Positions 4,940 to 64,000 of a stretch of DNA of 64,000 bases are shown piece after piece; positions within the stretch are counted from its first letter, which is position 1; each line of letters starts with the position of its first letter. A program made the position numbers and the translations under genes. The notes below the pieces were generated by a model that was given only the letters and a program-made list of their open reading frames with translations, did no database searches and was not told where the DNA came from. This DNA comes from Escherichia coli (GTDB lineage: Bacteria > Pseudomonadota > Gammaproteobacteria > Enterobacterales > Enterobacteriaceae). The stretch lies in assembly GCF_041248615.1 (NCBI RefSeq), contig NZ_CP158425.1, one strand, 5' to 3'.

Positions 4940-5224
4940 TTATTTAAGCTGGTCATCGTCTCTGGCCAGCATAGCCCAACCATTCGACTGGTTTTCGCGG
5001 GAGTAAGGATTCATTTCAAAATAACTATCTACCGCGTCGCTGTCCGCAACAGAACTGTTGTTAGCTCTCTTTGAACCCTGAACCACTACAGCATCAACCT
5101 CTGCGGCTTTCCCGTTGCGCTGTACCAGGATTTTAACCGTCTTGGGCTTACGTCTTGCGAGCAGTTTGTTGGCGATAAAAAGCACAACAATCCAGGCCAA
5201 AAGCACGTATAAAAATTTATTCAT
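4940..5224 (-). CDS. Small membrane-anchored protein
   Basis: AAGGAGGG RBS. N-terminal hydrophobic helix FLYVLLAWIVVLFIANKLL. Confidence 0.55.
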   Translation of the reverse strand: MNKFLYVLLAWIVVLFIANKLLARRKPKTVKILVQRNGKAAEVDAVVVQGSKRANNSSVADSDAVDSYFEMNPYSRENQSNGWAMLARDDDQLK

Positions 5225-5385
5225 AATGCCCTCCTTTGTATGTGATTATTATACCTGCTTCCATTGCAGGCCAAACAGGTTCGGTGTATGAAAAATAGAC
5301 TTCTCTCCGGCGTATAGCAATCTACTTACTGATCTGTTTTCGTATCAAACTGTATGGCATAACCGAGGGGCGTACGTGGTGAGTC

Positions 5386-43688: not shown

Positions 43689-46109
43689 ATGAAACATCTC
43701 GCTTTTATTACTGCTGTAGCCGGACTCGGTATGTCTGTTCAGGCCCCAGCTCAGATATATGAATCGGCCTTTAAGGACACGAACGGTATTGAGATCCACG
43801 CCCCGTCTTCTCGTCTTATGCTTAATCCGGCATCACCGGTAACTTTGACACTTATTTCAGGTCTTGATCGTTTCGTTAATGTCAAAGTCACGAAAGACAC
43901 TGGAACTGTCATTCTTAATACTACGACTACACGGACGGGTGTATCAGACCGACTAACAGCTGCTGACGGTAGTGAGTTCTACGGCAAAAAAGTAACTTTG
44001 CCTGCTTTGGGTGAAGGCAAATTTGTCGTTCAGATAAACGTGTTAGATCTCAATCAGAAGCCTGTAGCGACCTATAACTATAACTGGCTAATTGATGTCA
44101 CCCCTCCAGCGGCAAATGCTCTTACCGCTAATACTGGTTCTGGCTCTACCGCTGGTGACGTGTGGAAGCTTGGATTAGAGGCAACGGGGCAGTATGACTT
44201 CACCTCTTCGGGCGTAAGTGATGCAAATGGTATTGATAAGGGCCTAATATATATTTACAGGCAGGACGGTAGCCTCTACAGCACTACACAGATGCAGTAT
44301 GACGTATCCGGCCAAAAGATGTACCACACTTACTCTAAGAATTCAGTTAAGGGAACCGGAATACCAGACAGCAACCTGGATGAAGACTTTACTGCAAAAG
44401 TTGTTATCTTCGATAACGCAGGTAATAGCCGAACGCTGCCAACTCAAAAATTTCGCTACGACAACACGCTGGGTGAGATGACACTGTGGGCCGTTCATGA
44501 TCCAAATACGTCTTCCAGCGTCGTACCCGGGGTTTCTAATTATCCGGCTTACAAAGCCGGTATGGTCGTTAACGAAAACCCTATTCGATTAGTCTACCGG
44601 ATCCCAAAATCTAACTACCGTGCTTATTCAGAAGGTGGGCTTCAGTTCATCAATCAATATTCCGCCCCCAAAGAGATAGCTGTAGACAGCACTTATGCTT
44701 ATGTTGAAATGACTCTTCCCTATGGCTCAATTAATGGGGATATGGCTCGTATGGCGAACTTTGGCCAGTGGGGAGGGTATTATCCGTCATACAGCCTCGT
44801 TCTAAACCCATCTGCAAACCAAACGCCTGCATTTGCGGGTACCTGGGTAGATTTCCTCGATGATAAGGGGAACTGGGTTAAGTGGAAGGATTTTGAGAGT
44901 GTGGCTTCATCACGACTGCCAATTAAAATTTCCCGACTTCGTTTTAACGTTGAAGCCCGGCCCTTTGCACAGGAGATCGGCGGTAAGGCGACCTGCACCA
45001 TTCCGGCAGGAAAAACCTCGTGTGAAGCGCCTGAGACGTTTGATATGGCCTTGGGTACCCAGGGCTACAATAGAATCCTTTACTTCGTTCGCAGCATCAG
45101 CAATCCCATTTTGCGGTCTGAGCAATGGATTATGACACGCTGGAACAATAAACAACTGCCGGTAATAAACTCGATATCATATGACGAGACTAACAAGCAG
45201 CTGGATGTACTGGCGTCACTTGAAGGCGATGGTAACTGGTTCGACTCGGTCTCATTGAGGGAATTTTATCTTTCCGATAAGAACACCGGTACCCGGATGT
45301 CACCAACAGGCGTAATCAAATCTCGTATCTCAGGTAACTACACGATTGCTTATGATTTATCCCGTCAGTCTGAAGGAAAATACAACGTTGAGGTCAACAT
45401 CAGGGACTTCTTCCAGAACCAGACCAATAAAACTTTCGGAGAAATTGCTCTGGATAACACTCCTCCGACAGTGGCCATAACATTCGACGGAAAGCCGGTA
45501 AAAGACGATACGGTAGTGTACGGCCTGGAGAACCTCAGGATCGCTCTGGCAGATAATCTGACAACCCCGAGGATAACCCGTCTTCAGCTCGTAGGTGGCC
45601 CCACAGCTGATAACGTTGAGCTTACGTGGTCACCGGCAGGCAAAGATACATACATGCCTGAGTATCCGAGGCTGTTCCCAAATTTCGAACCATCTGAAAA
45701 TTATTCAATTAGCGTAACAGTTGCCGATAGTCAGTCGAATACCAAAACCTATACTCAGAAGTTCAGTTATCTACCGAATAACCTTGTGCAGTTACATAAT
45801 CTACGCACATTGTCGGTCAGTTCACCTCTCAAAACGACAGATGGCGTACCACTTGCGTACCTGTCCACTAACGTTCTGCGTAAGACAAATGGAGAAATTG
45901 CTAAAGGGGTCCAGAACGCAACGCTGACTGTGCGGAAGGATGCAGCCTTCGGTATTAAATTTAATGGGGCACAGGCGGCTCCAGGCGAGTCAGTTGAGGT
46001 GCAAATAGATATGGGCCAGGGGGATAATCTTCTGTTACCCGTTTATCCTTCCGAAAATGGGAAAGTTGGCACCTCAGAATTCATGATTCAGATCGACGAG
46101 TTGAAGTAA
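43689..46109 (+). CDS. Secreted large beta-rich (Ig-like repeat?) protein, paralog B
   Basis: AGGGGA RBS. Signal peptide MKHLAFITAVAGLGMSVQAPA. Long collinear similarity to 50384-52840, for example RFNVEARPFAQEIGGKATCTIPAGKTSC against RFNVQARPYDQKITGGATCSIPAGSTTC. Confidence 0.7.
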   Translation: MKHLAFITAVAGLGMSVQAPAQIYESAFKDTNGIEIHAPSSRLMLNPASPVTLTLISGLDRFVNVKVTKDTGTVILNTTTTRTGVSDRLTAADGSEFYGKKVTLPALGEGKFVVQINVLDLNQKPVATYNYNWLIDVTPPAANALTANTGSGSTAGDVWKLGLEATGQYDFTSSGVSDANGIDKGLIYIYRQDGSLYSTTQMQYDVSGQKMYHTYSKNSVKGTGIPDSNLDEDFTAKVVIFDNAGNSRTLPTQKFRYDNTLGEMTLWAVHDPNTSSSVVPGVSNYPAYKAGMVVNENPIRLVYRIPKSNYRAYSEGGLQFINQYSAPKEIAVDSTYAYVEMTLPYGSINGDMARMANFGQWGGYYPSYSLVLNPSANQTPAFAGTWVDFLDDKGNWVKWKDFESVASSRLPIKISRLRFNVEARPFAQEIGGKATCTIPAGKTSCEAPETFDMALGTQGYNRILYFVRSISNPILRSEQWIMTRWNNKQLPVINSISYDETNKQLDVLASLEGDGNWFDSVSLREFYLSDKNTGTRMSPTGVIKSRISGNYTIAYDLSRQSEGKYNVEVNIRDFFQNQTNKTFGEIALDNTPPTVAITFDGKPVKDDTVVYGLENLRIALADNLTTPRITRLQLVGGPTADNVELTWSPAGKDTYMPEYPRLFPNFEPSENYSISVTVADSQSNTKTYTQKFSYLPNNLVQLHNLRTLSVSSPLKTTDGVPLAYLSTNVLRKTNGEIAKGVQNATLTVRKDAAFGIKFNGAQAAPGESVEVQIDMGQGDNLLLPVYPSENGKVGTSEFMIQIDELK

Positions 46110-46117
46110 CTACCCGG

Positions 46118-46149
46118 AGCCGACAGTAAAACTGACGGCTTCAATTTTA
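46118..46149 (+). terminator. Probable terminator after paralog B
   Basis: AGCCGACAG (46118-46126) pairs with CTGACGGCT (46132-46140) with one A-A mismatch, followed by TCAATTTTA. Confidence 0.4.
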
Positions 46150-46210
46150 CTGCCCTCCTCGACTCCGATCAGCCAGTACGTCTTCAGAGATTCGCAAGGA
46201 AGAACCGAAA

Positions 46211-46225
46211 GAAAAGTTACTTTAA
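46211..46225. promoter_or_regulatory. Palindromic operator-like site, copy 10 (at the edge of the iteron array)
   Basis: GAAAAGTTACTTTAA. Confidence 0.45.
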
Positions 46226-46276
46226 TCGTACGTTTCCAGCGATGCTTTCAAAAGACAATGCATACTCGTTGATTAC

Positions 46277-48112
46277 GACAATGGGAGTGAGTGTCGAACC
46301 CCTTGAGTAAGGATACTTGGTAAATATACAGCCCCGGGGATTCTCTTCCTTCAACCGGGGATGACAACGGGAGTGAGTCCGGCAACTCACACCTGTTGTC
46401 ACTTCTCTGACATATCGTCATACGAGCTTACTCAAGCGCATCCACAAAGATGGGATCGTTTTGAATCTAAACTGGTACTGGTTAGCCAGTCACTTGCATC
46501 TACTCCCCCGTCGATATTTAAGTGACAATTGTAGTGATCTGCAATACTGGTGTCTCAGAAACACTGACGACGGTAGAGACTCAATACCCTAACCCCTGAC
46601 AACAGAAGTGAGCTTAGAGGTGTTACGCTGCTGTCACCTAATGCTTGGGAATTGCCTGACTCACAACCATTGTCATCCGGAGCTACTGATTAACGTTGAA
46701 CCGCTGGACTTTAATGACAGTGGTAGTGATGGATAGGCTCATTTCCATTGTCGTCATTTTATCGGACAAGCCTCTTCGTCCTACAGGTTTAAGCTGACAA
46801 TGGTAGTGATTGGATGATCTCACTACTGTTGTCACTCAGTTCTTTGAGCGGACCCTTCCCTCGGTTGGTCGGCATTAACAACGGTAGTGACTCGATTGGC
46901 TCACTGCCATTGTCATCGTGTAAATGACGTACCTTATCAGCTCAGCTGAAAGCAATGACAACGGTAGTGACTCTAATTGCTCACTGCCATTGTCGTCGTG
47001 TCTATTGAGAGCCTTATCAGTGCACCTGAAAAGCAATGACAACGGTAGTGATTCTAATGGCTCACTACCGTTGTCACCGTGTGTATTGAGAGGATGGTCC
47101 ACCTAACTGGACGTATATGACAATGGTAGTGACTTTAATAGCTCACTACCATTGTCGGTGTGTGAATTGAGAGGATGAGCAGCTCAGCTGTACGTCCATG
47201 ACAATGGTAATGACTTAATGAGCTCACTACCGTTGTCACCCTGTTAATTAAGAGGCTCATCTGCTCTTCTGGAAGGCTATGACAACGGAAGTGACTTGCT
47301 GGGCTCACTGCCATTGTCGCCGTATGAATTGAGAGGATCATCCGCTCTTCTGGATGGCAATGACAACGGTAATGACTTAATAGGCTCACTACCATTGTCA
47401 CCCTGTGAATTGAGAGGATGATCTGCTTAACCAGACGGCCATGACAACGGTAGTGACTTTCTGGGCTCAATACCGTTGTCACCCTGTGAGTTAAGAGGTT
47501 GACCCGCTCTACTGGACGGCCATGACAACGGTAGTCACTTTCTGGGCTCACTACCGTTGTCACCCTGTGAGTTAAGAGGTTGACCCGCTCTACTGGACGG
47601 CCATGACAACGGTAGTCACTTTCTGGGCTCACTACCGTTGTCGCCATATAGAATGAGAGGAGCATCAGCTCAACTGAACGGCAATGACTACAGTAATGAG
47701 CTGGATGAAGCATAACCATTGACATCTGGCCCAACCGGAAGCCGTATTCGCCAATCCAATCGAGATTCACAATGGCCGTGACTCGCCGCATTAAGTTCCG
47801 GTGTCCTCCCAAAGCTGAACGCACACTCGGAGGACAATGACAATGCCAGTAAGGTACACATCATTACCATTGTCACTATAGCTACCAGAGAAGCCGGGAT
47901 TTGAATGTCGATGGTAGTGAGTGGGTCAACTCACTGCCATTGTCACCCCGTTACGATATTTTCCGTTGGATGTACTGGCCAATGAAGTAAAGCGTAGAAA
48001 CCGGGTGTTAACAGGTGACTCAGGAGAAAGCGTTGAATTTCGCAATCTCGATCTACATAGGGTGGTAGAGAACAATGACAACGGTAATGACTTTTGACTC
48101 ATTACCGTTGAC
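46277..48112. repeat. Array of about 20 inverted iteron pairs (RepA-site palindromes) downstream of repA
   Basis: Each unit is GACAAYGGTAGTGA, 8-10 nt, then TCACTRCCRTTGTC. The arm sequence equals the direct iterons at 49496-49593 and 49919-50017. Confidence 0.85.
46796..47685. repeat. Core of the array: 11 tandem units of 80-81 bp
   Basis: Left arms start at 46796, 46877, 46957, 47038, 47119, 47200, 47281, 47362, 47443, 47524 and 47605. The spacers between pairs are also conserved. Confidence 0.9.
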
Positions 48113-48187
48113 GTGAAAGAGCGGGCTGGGACTAACGAAAATCGAAGAAGTAATTTAGCACCCGGAGCCTAAACCGCCGGGTTAACT

Positions 48188-49276
48188 TTAGCTGGCGTTG
48201 CTGTTCTTTTTCTGGCTTCGAAGACTACGAATATAGCGCAGTTCTTCAGCGGTTAAATCATGGACGGTAAGAACATCATCGCCGTCAATCGGGTCAGCTG
48301 GTGGGCATAACTCACCTTCTAAAACAGAAGACCCTGAGTTCTCTTCTTCATCTTCAACCACTTCTAAAGGAGGCTGAGTATTGTTCAAATTCAGATCGGG
48401 ATCCCGCTTATGAATCTGGAAGTATACTTTTCCGTCTTTCTTAATTTCGGTGTACTTGAGGTATCCTATCGATGCCAACTCTTCAAGAGCCTTTCTCACG
48501 GTAGCATTCTGACTATTTGCTCGTGTTTTGAGGTTCAGACGATTTTTCAGCCGAGTAAGGGATATCGGTATAGGATTTGGCGGTAATGACTCTATGAACG
48601 TATAGAGAGCCTGGGCGCTTTCCTTCTTGGCCAACTCCTTAATTGCCTTCAGCTGCATCAAAACCTTATGATCGTATTGATAGAGCTCGAAAATCTTAGG
48701 ATCAACCTGAAGGACAACCTGATCTGATTCCGGGTCTAACAGGGCAGACTGTACCAGATGCGTTGTATAGACTTTGGACGAGTTATTACTGGTGAACGAC
48801 AAGGTAACGGATGCTAACCTGCGTAAGGAGGCGTCTATACGTTTTCTGGACGCTGTAGATGAGCGATAATTTTCAGGCGTACATAGCTTGAGGAATTCAG
48901 TGAATTTTAAGCTTATCGTGTCATTGTTAATCGGATGATTGGCATAGGTTCGAATGATGCCCATCCACGTCTTAAAATCTACTGACATATTAAGACGCTC
49001 ACCGACAATTGAAATATTGGTGAACCCCTCGCTCTCCATTAAAGAGAGCGTCTGTAACTCTTTCGTTGCGTCAAAGCCAACCGTTTTATATTCCCGATTT
49101 TGACGCCCCACACTCTTTGGTGATGGGACGAACAGCCCGAGCCGCATCAAAGCAATAGACTGCACCGTACGGTTGCTGTTAGGACGCAAAATGATGTCTT
49201 TACCTGATTCTTTCTCTCTAACAGAGAAAGCCCTGGTGACCAGGTCCTGCTGCTCAGTATCTTTCTCTTTAGTCAT
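48188..49276 (-). CDS. repA: Replication initiator RepA, P1/RepFIB type, with an acidic C-terminal extension
   Basis: [28 protein letters not shown] and [31 protein letters not shown] align with the P1 RepA blocks [28 protein letters not shown] and [31 protein letters not shown] (from memory). Iterons flank the gene on both sides. Confidence 0.85.
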   Translation of the reverse strand: [362 protein letters not shown]

Positions 49277-49339
49277 AATTAGTTATCACTGAATGTGTAA
49301 ACAGATTGGTGAATAGTAAGCCCCAGCGAACTCTATGTC

Positions 49340-49490
49340 ACTGGATGGATCATTGTGATGATCCATATCTGTGCATAAGTTCTACCTAAAAAAACGACTC
49401 CACTCATTAAAACTTGGCAAAAACTCTTTGCATACAATGACCTGCAACTCTTATCAACAACGGATCAGATCAAGTTAAAAAGATCTAATG
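49340..49490. promoter_or_regulatory. GATC-rich repA promoter/origin-proximal region
   Basis: GATC at 49348, 49360, 49463, 49468 and 49482. Palindrome GGATCAT-TGTG-ATGATCC at 49347-49364. AT-rich. Confidence 0.5.
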
Positions 49491-49495
49491 AAAAG

Positions 49496-49593
49496 TCACT
49501 ACTATTGTCGCTCTGATCACTACTGATGTCAAAAAACTCATTACCAACGTTATAATAATCACTACTAATGTCAAAATAATCACTACTGTTGTC
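49496..49593. repeat. Origin iteron set 1: five direct repeats at exact 21-bp spacing
   Basis: TCACTACTATTGTC (49496), TCACTACTGATGTC (49517), TCATTACCAACGTT (49538), TCACTACTAATGTC (49559), TCACTACTGTTGTC (49580). Confidence 0.85.
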
Positions 49594-49796
49594 ACTGATC
49601 ACGTCTCAGGCCTTGTGCCGTCTGGCCTGGAGGCAGCGGGGATCTCTTTTGATCTATCAGGAACACTAAGGTACTAATTATTGGAACTACCTTGTGGAAA
49701 ATGGGGATAAATAAATGCTTAGTTCTTATACAGGTCTCAACTTGCCTCCCTGATAAAAACTGTCGTCAAAGCTAAATCACAGCCACAGGCATTTTC

Positions 49797-49805
49797 GGTG
49801 GATAA
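49797..49805. promoter_or_regulatory. DnaA-box-like sequence
   Basis: GGTGGATAA is the reverse complement of TTATCCACC, an 8/9 match to TTATCCACA. It lies between the two iteron sets. Confidence 0.3.
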
Positions 49806-49918
49806 ATTTTTGAGAAATAGAAGCATACATGCAGACTCGTGTCGCAAGTAATTGAAAGTAATGATTTATTTAAATAATGCGAGTCACCTTACCTCACAGT
49901 GGAAGTTTAAGTCTAACC

Positions 49919-50017
49919 TCACTACCATTGTCACTTAAAATCATTACCAACGTCGAAATAGTCTCTACCATTGTCTTTTAAGTCACTCCCGTTGTCACTT
50001 ATGTCGCTACTGTTGTC
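49919..50017. repeat. Origin iteron set 2: five direct repeats at 21-22-bp spacing
   Basis: TCACTACCATTGTC (49919), TCATTACCAACGTC (49941), TCTCTACCATTGTC (49962), TCACTCCCGTTGTC (49983), TCGCTACTGTTGTC (50004). Confidence 0.85.
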
Positions 50018-50245
50018 AGTGACAATGCTCCAGCCCAGTAACCATGCGGCCTACAGCGTACCGGGATCTTCTTTGTACTCTCTGGCACCTTTGGGATCAT
50101 TTATTGGATCTACATGAGGGATAAAATCTTTTGACGATTTCGTAGTGCAGTTATACCAGCGACTTAGCAAGACAAAAGCTGCAATTTAGTGACGAGTTAC
50201 TAGTCTGCCCAACAAGAGCAATGCAGAGAAGATATGTGGTGAAAT

Positions 50246-50279
50246 GACCATGGTAGTGAGTCTAATCACTACCATGGTC
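50246..50279. repeat. Isolated inverted iteron pair
   Basis: GACCATGGTAGTGA (50246-50259), 6 nt, then TCACTACCATGGTC (50266-50279). Confidence 0.8.
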
Positions 50280-50383
50280 CGCAGTAAGCGTTACTTACGC
50301 AATGAACGTCGGACTGATTTGCAACAACATGGGCTACGGCGCATCAGAAGGCGGCCGTTGTGCTTCAGCAAAACAGCCCTGCT

Positions 50384-52840
50384 TTATTTTAATTCTTCAA
50401 TGTTAATCATGAACTCAGATCTGCCAGTAAGGCCGGATACAGCAGGGAAAATAGGAAAGCTACGGCTGTCCCCGAGCCCCAAATCCAGTTGAAGCTCTTT
50501 GCTTTCACCTGGCATCGCAGAAACGCCATTTACAGTCACGCCGAATGCAGCGTCCTTACGGACAGTAAGCACTGCGTCCTGAAGCCCTGTAGCGATTGAA
50601 CCATCCTTTTTACGCAGCTGGCTGGCATACAGAACAGCCAGAGCAGTATTGTCAGATGTTTTGAGAGAAGCATTGACAGCTAAGGTTTTCAGATTCTCTA
50701 GCCTGACGAGATTGTTTGGAAGGTAGTTAAATTCGACTGAGCTTTCTTTAACGTTGTTCATCTCATCTTTGGCCTGAACTGTGAGAGTGTATGTTTCGCC
50801 TTCATTAAGAGACGGAAAGATCTTGGGATAATTAGGTGCATACAGGTTGTTTCCCAGATTCACCCAAGACAATTCCACCGCATCAGAAACAGGGCCACCG
50901 CGAAGAGTCATACGGCTTAAGGATGGTTTAGTTAGAGCATCGGTGAGCTGTATACGGACGTTCTCCAGCCCATATACTGTTACGTTTTTGCTGATCGGTT
51001 TTCCTTCGTAGCTAATACTTACAGATGGTGCTGTATTATCAACGACAACTGTTTGATAAGGGAGGTTACCGGTATTGTTGAATGTATCTTGGGCATTAAT
51101 CACCACGTTATAACTGCCTTCTGGTACCTCTTTCATGTTGAACTCATACGTGTAGTTCCCAGACGCCATATTTCTACCTGTTTGTTTGCCGGTTACGCTT
51201 ATTTCTGCGTTGTTACGGTTTTTATCTGACAACCAAACTCGATTTACATAAACATGGTCGAAATATGAACCATCTCCAGGTTGATTCACGTAAACCTGGA
51301 GAATGTTGGTGGTTTCATTGTAATCAAATCCAGTGACGGAGGGACCCAGTGTATGCCAGGCTATATTCTCCCATATAGGGGCAAAGAAGGTTGCTTCGGT
51401 GGTTGACCTTACTTCATAGCCACTATGAAGATAACCGGTAGTGCCATTTATAATATCCTGGGGCAAAGAGACGGTACAGGTTGTTGAGCCAGCTGGAATA
51501 CTGCATGTTGCTCCGCCAGTGATTTTTTGATCATATGGCCTGGCCTGTACATTGAATCGGATATTAGTAAGTTTTATAGGCATATCAGATGCCTTGAACA
51601 GGTTCCAGTTTACGCTGTTGAACCATGTTCCATCAGCCTTTTGTCGTTCTATGGGTGAACTTCCCCAAGCCGGACTCTTTACAGAGGCAGGATCCCAGTT
51701 GAGCCAGCTGGCATACTGACCAAGATCTCCTCCAGACCATTGATATGTATTCACAGGTCTATAGTAGTTTCCATCTAAGGCACCCTGTGGCAGCTTAACT
51801 TCCACGTAGACATAGGTGGCATCTTCGGAAAGGACCTGTACTCCGCCATAGTTATTGGTAATGCTCATGCCACCATTTCGATATGGCTTCCAGTTAGTTC
51901 TTGGGATACGTATAACCAACTTGTAGGGGTTTTCCAGCACTGTAAGGCCTCGTTTAAACGGGACGTATCCCGAAGAAATGCCGGGTACAACACTGGTGCT
52001 TACACGTGAGTCATGAACTGCAAATGGCGTAAATTCTCCCATTTGATCGTCATATAAAAACCGCTGGGGAGGAATGTTAAGCGTATTTCCTGCCAGGTCC
52101 GTAACGATGAAATTGAAGGTGAATTCTTCATCAAGATCACTTGAGGGCATGCCAGCCTGGGTGTTCATATCTTTAATCCACGGATAGAACGCACGTTTAT
52201 TGGCTGTGTCATAACTCAGGTTATTGTCGGAGACCACAGAACCATTACTTCGTTTAATGACAAGACGGATCTTGTCAATTCCACTAGCATCCTCAATACC
52301 GTCTGCAAATATAGAAAACTGGCCACTACCGCCTCGGCCCAACTCCCAAAGTGGCCCAGAAAGTACCATGTCGTAACCTGCGTTTTGACTCGGATAAATA
52401 CTCTTATAGCGTGGAGGAGTTGTATCAACGATGAAATGATAAGTAGATGTGCTCACTACAGTCTGGCGAATATCCAGAGTTTCATTGACTACAGTAAAGG
52501 TCCCTTCTCCGAGCGCCGGTAGAACCATATCCTTTCCATAGTATTCTGTTCCATCGGCAGCAACGATACGATCTGCAACGCTCGTTTTGGTCGAGACGGA
52601 GGAATACATAACCTTTTTATCGCTGTCTCGTGTGACCGTCACTCGCTCGTACCGATCAAGACCCGATATCAAGTTCAGAGTCAAAACACCAGCGGGATTA
52701 AGATATGTTTGTGTTGCAGGTTTGATATTCCGAACAGCCTTATTGGTATCTGTAAATGAGTAGCTAAATACCTGAGCATGTGCCGAAGATACAGTAGCAA
52801 GGGCAGTTGCAACCATGCAGCCAATTAGAGTTTTACGCAT
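50384..52840 (-). CDS. Secreted large beta-rich (Ig-like repeat?) protein, paralog C
   Basis: GGAG RBS. Signal peptide MRKTLIGCMVATALATVSSAHA. C-terminus SEFMINIEELK against SEFMIQIDELK in paralog B. Confidence 0.7.
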   Translation of the reverse strand: MRKTLIGCMVATALATVSSAHAQVFSYSFTDTNKAVRNIKPATQTYLNPAGVLTLNLISGLDRYERVTVTRDSDKKVMYSSVSTKTSVADRIVAADGTEYYGKDMVLPALGEGTFTVVNETLDIRQTVVSTSTYHFIVDTTPPRYKSIYPSQNAGYDMVLSGPLWELGRGGSGQFSIFADGIEDASGIDKIRLVIKRSNGSVVSDNNLSYDTANKRAFYPWIKDMNTQAGMPSSDLDEEFTFNFIVTDLAGNTLNIPPQRFLYDDQMGEFTPFAVHDSRVSTSVVPGISSGYVPFKRGLTVLENPYKLVIRIPRTNWKPYRNGGMSITNNYGGVQVLSEDATYVYVEVKLPQGALDGNYYRPVNTYQWSGGDLGQYASWLNWDPASVKSPAWGSSPIERQKADGTWFNSVNWNLFKASDMPIKLTNIRFNVQARPYDQKITGGATCSIPAGSTTCTVSLPQDIINGTTGYLHSGYEVRSTTEATFFAPIWENIAWHTLGPSVTGFDYNETTNILQVYVNQPGDGSYFDHVYVNRVWLSDKNRNNAEISVTGKQTGRNMASGNYTYEFNMKEVPEGSYNVVINAQDTFNNTGNLPYQTVVVDNTAPSVSISYEGKPISKNVTVYGLENVRIQLTDALTKPSLSRMTLRGGPVSDAVELSWVNLGNNLYAPNYPKIFPSLNEGETYTLTVQAKDEMNNVKESSVEFNYLPNNLVRLENLKTLAVNASLKTSDNTALAVLYASQLRKKDGSIATGLQDAVLTVRKDAAFGVTVNGVSAMPGESKELQLDLGLGDSRSFPIFPAVSGLTGRSEFMINIEELK

Positions 52841-63524: not shown

Positions 63525-63752
63525 ATCTTCCTCCTGTTTACTACATGATACATGAACCTCAAATTTGCCAAATAGGGCTGATACATCTAAAAGGTAAACT
63601 CAAAAAATTTGCTTAATAAAATTAAAATAAAAACTGTCTTGAATAAAACAATGATAGTAGACCCTCGTTCATTTCCGTTTGCGATCTGTAGATATTGTTA
63701 AAGGAGCGCTATTCCTTGTTTTATATGGACTTATCATTGTTTTCAACAGGAT

Positions 63753-63802
63753 AGATCAATTCTTTAGATCACTAAAGATCAATAGAGTTCAAGTAAAGAT
63801 CA
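63753..63802. repeat. Four AGATCA motifs phased at 11-12 and 21 bp
   Basis: AGATCA at 63753, 63765, 63776 and 63797. Confidence 0.5.
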
Positions 63803-63848
63803 CGGCATCTTTAACTCATTGATTATAGTGACTTTATGAAAGGATCCG

Positions 63849-63945
63849 GCATTCGGATGCATGCGAAAAGCATTTGAATGAATAAGGAAGGCATTTACTG
63901 GAATGCTTATGGCATTTAGGTTAATGCGTAAAAAGCATTTGCAAG
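63849..63945. repeat. Five direct GCATT(T/C) repeats at 21-23-bp spacing (cut by the window edge?)
   Basis: GCATTC at 63849; GCATTT at 63870, 63891, 63912 and 63935. Each is followed by a (G)AATG-like submotif. Confidence 0.55.
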
Positions 63946-64000
63946 AATATGTTATAAACAGTTTGCCAAATGAAAATCTTATCACCGACGAGTTAAGTTA

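Follow-up and report, generated by a model that had tools for sequence, protein, structure and literature searches.

The question raised by this locus is why an iteron plasmid should retain two complete copies of its replication origin. The region concerned, positions 49340–50279 of a 64,000-nucleotide stretch of Escherichia coli DNA (contig NZ_CP158425.1 of assembly GCF_041248615.1; the whole stretch is referred to here as the window), lies upstream of the initiator gene repHI2 and holds two sets of five direct repeats, each followed by a flank that an earlier reading made from the letters alone (the sequence-only reading) had likened to the origin of P1. The region is almost certainly that side of the RepHI2 (RepHI2A) iteron replicon which holds the origin, with two P1-type units; this is the replicon of R478 and other IncHI2 plasmids. 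The best explanation overall, to which we give a probability of about 75%, is a RepHI2 origin in which the unit nearer repHI2 (module 1) is the principal origin and the more distant unit (module 2) a second site. Among the major vehicles of resistance to multiple drugs, colistin (mcr-9) and metals in Salmonella, E. coli and Enterobacter are the IncHI2 plasmids. A correct origin map, with its two P1-type units, DnaA boxes, pairs of Dam sites and very large control array, points to the sequences that set copy number, incompatibility and replicon typing, and offers concrete targets for curing or interference. The locus is also a simple natural system for the opening question; selection has maintained a complete origin unit in duplicate in two or more Rep clades, whereas a single one suffices for P1 and classical RepFIB.

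Two P1-type units in the RepHI2 replicon

The interval 49300–50300 is a 100% match to many large conjugative IncHI2 plasmids of Salmonella, E. coli and Enterobacter. A survey of 72,556 plasmid records found some 1,130 with the RepHI2 replicon at 95% identity or above; about 1,120 plasmids, R478 among them, are at least 99% identical at the locus, and in R478 (NC_005211), the IncHI2 reference plasmid, module 2 (49919–50140) is 100% identical. At the threshold of at least 95% identity, the count of plasmids is about 1125 for module 1, 1122 for module 2 and 1126 for RepHI2. A search of genome contigs returned close relatives only (99–86%), and relatives of intermediate distance were obtained by tblastn against plasmids. 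The RepHI2A region of R478 was cloned in 2001 as an autonomous replicon, according to papers citing Page et al. 2001. A doubled P1-type core is not described in the literature within our reach, which covers the long iterons but lies outside the primary papers. The replicon has long been known and its architecture is under-described; what may be new, as an incremental addition, is the evidence for selection on the two units, for an old duplication and for its recurrence elsewhere.

The gene repHI2 (48188–49276, minus strand) encodes an initiator of 362 amino acids of the P1 RepA/RepFIB family, annotated as RepHI2 (IncHI-type) in pSTM6-275. Scans of Pfam and NCBIfam assign it to no family and a sequence search of the PDB gives only noise, so its homology is settled by direct BLASTP against P1 RepA (41% identity over 266 residues, E = 2e-73). 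RepHI2 is 43% identical to a RepHI1B-type Rep and 86% identical to its Citrobacter homologue.

Iteron set 1 (49496–49593, plus strand) comprises five 14-nucleotide cores of the form TCACTACNNTTGTC, which a repeat finder and a window-wide scan for this consensus place at 49496, 49517, 49538, 49559 and 49580, a spacing of 21 bp. The five iterons of set 2 (49919–50017, plus strand) start at 49919, 49941, 49962, 49983 and 50004, with steps of 22, 21, 21 and 21 bp. Both sets lie where the sequence-only reading had put them, with the first step of set 2 one base pair longer than its 21-bp spacing. The two origin units are in direct orientation, 424 bp apart, and in both the last iteron starts 59 nucleotides before the sequence GGGATCT. 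Each set contains a single deviant copy, TCATTACCAACGTY, at rank three in set 1 (49538–49551, TCATTACCAACGTT) and rank two in set 2 (49941–49954, TCATTACCAACGTC). The departure of these copies from TTGTC is kept, as …ACCGTT and …AACGTC, in a sister clade from Citrobacter and Kluyvera whose Rep is 86% identical (the 86% clade). The deviant copies suggest a selected weak or special site, together with a past shift of one iteron in register between the sets.

Beyond each iteron set lies an origin core of the P1 oriR-core type. Core 1 (49594–49716, plus strand) has a GATC at 49597 and a G+C stretch at 49598–49637, followed from 49639 by the phased heptamers GGGATCT, TGATCT, GGAACA, GGTACT and GGAACT, two of which contain GATC. 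Its tandem DnaA boxes lie on the minus strand at 49693–49701 and 49702–49710 (TTTTCCACA and TTATCCCCA), at the same offset as the tandem boxes of P1. Core 2 (50018–50135, plus strand) repeats this arrangement with a G+C stretch at 50022–50061 and, from 50063, the heptamers GGGATCT, TGTACT, GGCACC, GGGATCA and GGATCT, three of the five with GATC. The G+C stretches have 35% and 42% A+T in modules 1 and 2 respectively, compared with ~61–67% in the flanks. At the position of the DnaA box, core 2 is degenerate in IncHI2 (GAGGGATAA; TTATCCCTC, three mismatches) and reads TGTGGAAAA in the 86% clade.

That the two flanks are related, as had been proposed, is supported by a local alignment of 49598–49918 with 50022–50341, which scores 27 against 18.2 ± 2.2 for shuffled sequences (3 in 1000 reach 27) and begins at offset 41 in both, so that the two flanks are in the same register. 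A profile built independently from 13 origin cores of other replicons, with no sequence from the RepHI2 clade, matches 49598–49711 (E = 5.8e-15) and 50024–50124 (E = 1.4e-14) and nothing else in the origin region. By sensitive blastn, the module 2 flank matches many plasmids of E. coli, Salmonella and Klebsiella at 79–85%, RepHI1B-type origins included; for the module 1 flank the match is in a Duffyella megaplasmid, and a 77% homologue covering both modules is present in two Citrobacter plasmids. In five other replicons a rep gene of the RepB family is immediately preceded by a matching core, set between that replicon's own five iterons and DnaA box. A collinear alignment joins P1 oriR, both window modules, both Citrobacter modules and three other cores, with the window modules gap-free against P1, and the aligned cores have in common a G+C-rich stretch, an invariant GGGATCT, GGATCT-like repeats phased at 11 bp, TTATTGGAnCT and a DnaA box at equal offset. 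On the collinear alignment, the common 59-nucleotide distance and the independent profile matches, each iteron set with its flank is, as judged from sequence, a complete P1 oriR-type origin unit. The resemblance to P1 oriR seen in the sequence-only reading is one of true homology: RepA is 41% identical, both flanks are collinear with the annotated P1 oriR, and blastn aligns the module 2 flank with P1-family phages (79% over 86 bp, E = 2e-7). The RepHI2 replicon is a relative of the P1 oriR-repA-incA and RepFIB replicons.

Rfam at a permissive threshold gives only a chance microRNA match in 46000–50600 (E = 0.67), which leaves no RNA-family explanation for the conserved cores. Within 49277–50383, the IHF consensus WATCAANNNNTTR has no match, and the ATG-initiated open reading frames of at least 20 codons are all of 38 amino acids or fewer and unconvincing. 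A duplex-stability profile in 40-mers picks out the two G+C barriers, and the heptamer stretch comes out slightly less stable in module 1, a difference that is not decisive.

The P1 reference record annotates oriR with five incC iterons at 21–22-bp spacing, five Dam sites and tandem DnaA boxes. P1 and RepHI2 have the same order of parts: five 21-bp-spaced iterons, a G+C spacer of equal length, GGATCT-type heptamers in 11-bp phase, which in RepHI2 keep part of the Dam sites of P1, and then tandem DnaA boxes. In both replicons DnaA boxes flank the iterons on either side and an array of control iterons follows rep, with P1 incA annotated in the same position. Unlike P1, the RepHI2 replicon has the origin unit twice. 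The P1 iterons abut rep and hold its promoter, whereas in RepHI2 219 bp intervene (56 bp in the equivalent stretch of P1); the control array consists of 15 inverted pairs in 81-bp units in RepHI2 and of nine direct iterons in P1 incA; and RepHI2 carries a 65-residue acidic tail that P1 RepA does not have.

Conservation, age and recurrence of the double layout

Comparison with the 86% clade, for which synonymous third positions are saturated at 43–48% identity, separates the units from their surroundings. Iteron set 1 is 85% and iteron set 2 77% identical, core 1 is 80% identical with a block of 46 nucleotides unchanged, and core 2 is 77% identical up to TTATTGGAnCT, with its DnaA part at 36%. 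The inter-module spacer (49717–49918) and the DNA beyond module 2 are at 40% and 42% respectively, and the contrast between module 2 and the spacers is significant (Fisher P = 4e-17). At a shorter time depth, against a 97% variant of the locus, 29 changes fall in 585 bp of flanks and 4 in the 438 bp of the modules (P = 2e-4), with no differences in iteron set 2 and one change within the 118 bp of core 2. Both units are very probably under functional constraint, and the data show them to be old paralogues kept intact by selection, both doing something that needs core as well as iterons. As the non-iteron core is conserved too, titration is unlikely to be the sole role. A third, partial origin core lies in inverted orientation ~330 bp beyond module 2 in the 86% clade (E = 2.4e-8), at 5193–5275 of the locus in Citrobacter pRHB35-C21_2 and 2220–2302 in Kluyvera georgiana.

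The sequence-only reading had named a decayed duplicate as the alternative to a working second module, and conservation contradicts it. The degenerate DnaA box of module 2 and the retention of GATC in three of its five heptamers might be read as signs of decay. However, conservation is far above neutral at both time depths, module 2 is kept in 1122 of ~1126 IncHI2 plasmids and it fits the family profile as well as module 1 does, which together make a functionless duplicate very improbable.

The tandem duplication of the whole unit proposed from the sequence holds in that the unit is present twice, but it is not recent. Cores 1 and 2 are 55% identical to each other. In the same alignment the orthologous cores of the two RepHI2 clades are 69–80% identical, which places the duplication long before the split of these clades. 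The nearest relatives of core 1 are the distal cores of pHCM2-like replicons (66% to that of the Salmonella Typhi 106.7-kb IncFIB plasmid), with P1 at 60%, and core 2 is 64–65% identical to the single cores of RepHI1B-type and P1-like elements. This pattern, in which each core is nearer to cores elsewhere than to its partner, could reflect a mosaic, the second unit having been recombined in from another replicon of the P1/RepFIB family and its iterons later converted to RepHI2 specificity; that IncHI2 plasmids hold a second replicon of the same family would fit such a history. We consider it rather unlikely. The alignments extend over only ~120 nucleotides and the differences in identity amount to about a dozen positions, both iteron sets have the RepHI2 consensus and the same deviant copy, and the double layout occurs in another Rep clade with a C-terminal tail in common, which fits one old duplication. 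A mosaic would in any case concern where the second unit came from, not what it does, and is compatible with a principal origin accompanied by a second site.

The layout was also thought unusual, and it is uncommon but not unique. Profile scans of sampled replicon loci find two cores upstream of rep in RepHI2, its 86% clade, three pHCM2-like IncFIB plasmids (S. Typhi 106.7-kb, E. coli 112-kb and Enterobacter 109-kb) and one Pantoea agglomerans plasmid of 171 kb. A single core is found in P1, a P1-like phage, RepHI1B-type, Duffyella, IncFIB(K) and pESI-type replicons, and likewise in classical RepFIB (pO145, pSLT and one further Salmonella plasmid). Replicons of the RepFIB family (IncFIB of F, pO145 and pSLT; IncFIB(K); pESI type) and of RepHI1B type thus belong to the same Rep family and origin-core family as RepHI2, their Reps being ~41–47% identical to it by global alignment and 49–52% by local tblastn, but unlike RepHI2 those sampled have one detectable core upstream of rep. 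The pHCM2-like and Pantoea replicons have, like RepHI2, two tandem units of five iterons and a P1-type core. They differ from it in that the proximal iteron set abuts rep, as in P1, the units are ~350–380 bp apart rather than 424 bp, the iteron sequences are different, and the tandem DnaA boxes are in the distal rather than the proximal core. The two double-core groups stay apart in a rough Rep tree, and the doubling may have arisen once or twice. One initiator serving more than one origin on a plasmid is familiar from R6K (alpha, beta and gamma) and F RepFIA (oriV and oriS). In those systems the origins are structurally unlike or have one iteron set between them, in contrast to the two complete, collinear tandem copies of RepHI2.

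The acidic C-terminal extension of RepHI2 is ~65 residues long (residues ~298–362; 48188–48385), and the pHCM2-like and Pantoea Reps (351–357 amino acids) have a related acidic tail with the motif L[ST]xEE...R..K. Taken across the sample, the Reps of all double-core replicons (351–370 amino acids) have in common an acidic tail that ends in a helix-like L[ST]xEE..[IL]..[LI]R..K, and in single-core Reps (286–336 amino acids) that tail is absent or different. The tail may be linked to the double origin. A stronger version of this idea is that both units are active origins served by one initiator, a two-origin design inherited in the Rep subfamily with the acidic tail (RepHI2, pHCM2-like IncFIB and Pantoea), which we hold to be a minority possibility. 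Were both units active, possibilities include a tail that bridges Rep bound at the two units, or a choice of origin switched by host, temperature or methylation state.

GATC sites, DnaA boxes and a model for initiation

Twelve GATC sites lie at 49348, 49360, 49463, 49468, 49482, 49515, 49597, 49641, 49651, 50065, 50095 and 50107, exactly as listed beforehand. The window as a whole has 225 (3.5 per kb), and the suspicion that the origin region is denser than the rest is borne out: 49348–49667 holds nine sites where 1.1 are expected and is the densest 320-bp stretch of the window (Poisson P = 2e-6), and 49348–50110 holds 12 where 2.6 are expected (P = 1.6e-5). The part richest in GATC (five sites in 49348–49485) is outside both modules, between repHI2 and iteron set 1. 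Several sites form groups with members 5–14 bp apart (49348/49360, 49463/49468/49482, 49641/49651 and 50095/50107).

The GATC-rich part belongs to a rep-proximal leader of 219 bp (49277–49495) with 66% A+T in 49348–49495, five GATC and two DnaA boxes, a perfect one at 49370–49378 on the minus strand (TTATGCACA) and a similar one at 49451–49459 on the plus strand (TTATCAACA). Compared with the 86% clade, the leader is 62–66% identical, above the 40–42% of unconstrained spacers, and it conserves both DnaA boxes and all but one of its five GATC sites. DnaA-like boxes (TTATNCACA with at most one mismatch) number five in the 1107 bp of 49277–50383 against 0.8 expected (P = 0.0014). Within the inter-module spacer, a DnaA-like element that the sequence-only reading had marked at 49797–49805 is present as GGTGGATAA (TTATCCACC on the minus strand), and it is the sole part of the spacer to survive in the alignment with the 86% clade, the remainder being unalignable. 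The two GATC nearest repHI2 lie in a perfect 9-bp inverted repeat (49348–49369, ATGGATCAT-TGTG-ATGATCCAT) just upstream of a promoter-like −35 element; the 86% clade has lost the palindrome and retains both GATC with their 12-bp spacing. The leader was also considered as a third, mirrored core (49277–49495), which was dropped as neither profile detected it.

From sequence, we take replication in IncHI2 to start principally at module 1, with module 2 as a second site at which initiation is weaker or conditional. The choice of module 1 follows from its DnaA boxes on both sides, its more easily melted heptamer stretch and its invariant block of 46 nucleotides. That both units can initiate is about as likely as not. 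A mechanism can be proposed by homology with P1, in which the heptamer stretch is the part that melts. RepHI2 monomers would fill the five iterons, and DnaA at the flanking boxes would act with RepHI2 to open the phased heptamer stretch beside the G+C barrier. The closely spaced GATC pairs (49641/49651, 50095/50107, 49348/49360 and 49463–49482) would allow control by Dam and SeqA, including sequestration, and the downstream array and a lone inverted iteron pair would limit copy number through titration of RepHI2 and pairing with the origin iterons (handcuffing). P1 oriR depends on clustered GATC methylation. Since both RepHI2 cores are poorer in GATC than P1, Dam dependence of the RepHI2 origin is plausible but not implied.

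Instead of a second initiation site, module 2 could be a control element. The replicon would then have one origin, probably module 1, and the other unit would titrate RepHI2, handcuff, or load the initiator without melting. This is a minority possibility. In its favour, IncHI2 module 2 has no good DnaA box at the canonical position and a more stable heptamer stretch, the RepHI2 replicon plainly uses many non-origin iterons for control, and P1 has a separate control array, incA. Yet a titration site needs iterons alone, and in module 2 the conservation of the G+C stretch and heptamers equals that of the iterons (77%, with neutral sequence at 40–42%). The near-identity of core 2 to the 97% variant, an iteron spacing that is exactly that of module 1 and P1, and a good DnaA box retained at module 2 by the sister clade also argue for more than control.

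Several observations weigh against a principal P1-type origin with a second site. At the canonical position, module 2 of IncHI2 has no DnaA box with one mismatch or fewer. In each core GATC is present at only two of the five Dam positions of P1, module 2 having one further GATC at the position of the P1 heptamer that lacks it. The 11-bp phasing and GGWWCT-like repeats are kept in both modules, but several heptamers of the RepHI2 origin differ from those of P1. Brendler and colleagues reportedly found in 1991 that single-base changes in the P1 heptamers block the P1 origin, in which case the heptamer requirement here must differ. Iteron set 1 lies 219 bp from the start of repHI2 and does not abut it as incC does in P1, so that autoregulation from within the iterons is at most a possibility. 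Promoter-like sites are found in the leader (49341–49313, minus strand) and inside the iterons (49532–49504); as promoter and terminator matches in the scan are no more frequent than in shuffled sequence, these are candidate sites at most. Lastly, the second replicon of IncHI2 plasmids makes natural retention of the units weaker evidence of necessity than it would be in a plasmid with one replicon.

Control array, second replicon and neighbouring features

Beyond the stop codon of repHI2 lies a putative RepHI2-binding array, the counterpart of P1 incA (46277–48112), which the sequence-only reading did not include. It holds ~35 iteron matches, with 15 head-to-head pairs separated by gaps of 8–10 bp (10 bp in 13 of the 15). 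Its centre is an 81-bp tandem repeat of 10.3 copies (46871–47699, Tandem Repeats Finder) that ends 489 bp from the repHI2 stop codon. We take the target of the HI2 replicon-typing polymerase chain reaction, named 'iterons', to be within this array. An open reading frame of 229 amino acids (47135–47824) lies wholly within the repeats and is probably spurious. R478 is described as having twelve 80–81-bp iterons ~500 bp from repHI2 (PMC8490738, citing Gilmour 2004 and Page 2001), and the long iterons of R478 repHI2 are reported to have proved functional on cloning. PMC8490738 puts them beside the start codon, whereas in the present sequence they lie 3′ of repHI2.

At the other end of the replicon, the lone inverted iteron pair said to close the region is present as two head-to-head 14-nucleotide arms (50246–50259 and 50266–50279) that are 100% complementary across a 6-nucleotide gap. 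It resembles one 81-bp unit of the array less 4 nucleotides (alignment score 41 against 13.7 ± 2.3 for shuffles). The pair is specific to the IncHI2 lineage: the 97% variant has it and the 86% clade does not.

IncHI2 plasmids have a second replicon of the same family as RepHI2. A weak match to the independent profile at the far end of the window (63731–63960, minus strand, E = 1.7e-4) reveals a third P1-type origin core, with five GATC in 63745–63803 followed by direct repeats of GCATTT type at ~63850–63960. This is probably the single-core origin of the second replicon, whose rep gene (291 amino acids, 43% identical to RepHI2; 1–876 in pSTM6-275) lies just beyond the end of the window. Natural variants with a disrupted locus are too rare (records of partial coverage make up ~20 of 1126 IncHI2) and too confounded by the second replicon to be usable. 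In one record, pJT01 (NZ_MH179305), a break associated with an IS91-family element at 49721/49722 parts module 2 from module 1 and repHI2; the breakpoint falls exactly where core 1 ends. GC skew does not switch at the locus and is therefore uninformative as to which origin is used. The whole RepHI2 replicon is flanked by two paralogous large genes with Ig-like domains (DUF4165, Big_3_2 and Big_3_3), at 43689–46109 on the plus strand and 50384–52840 on the minus strand.

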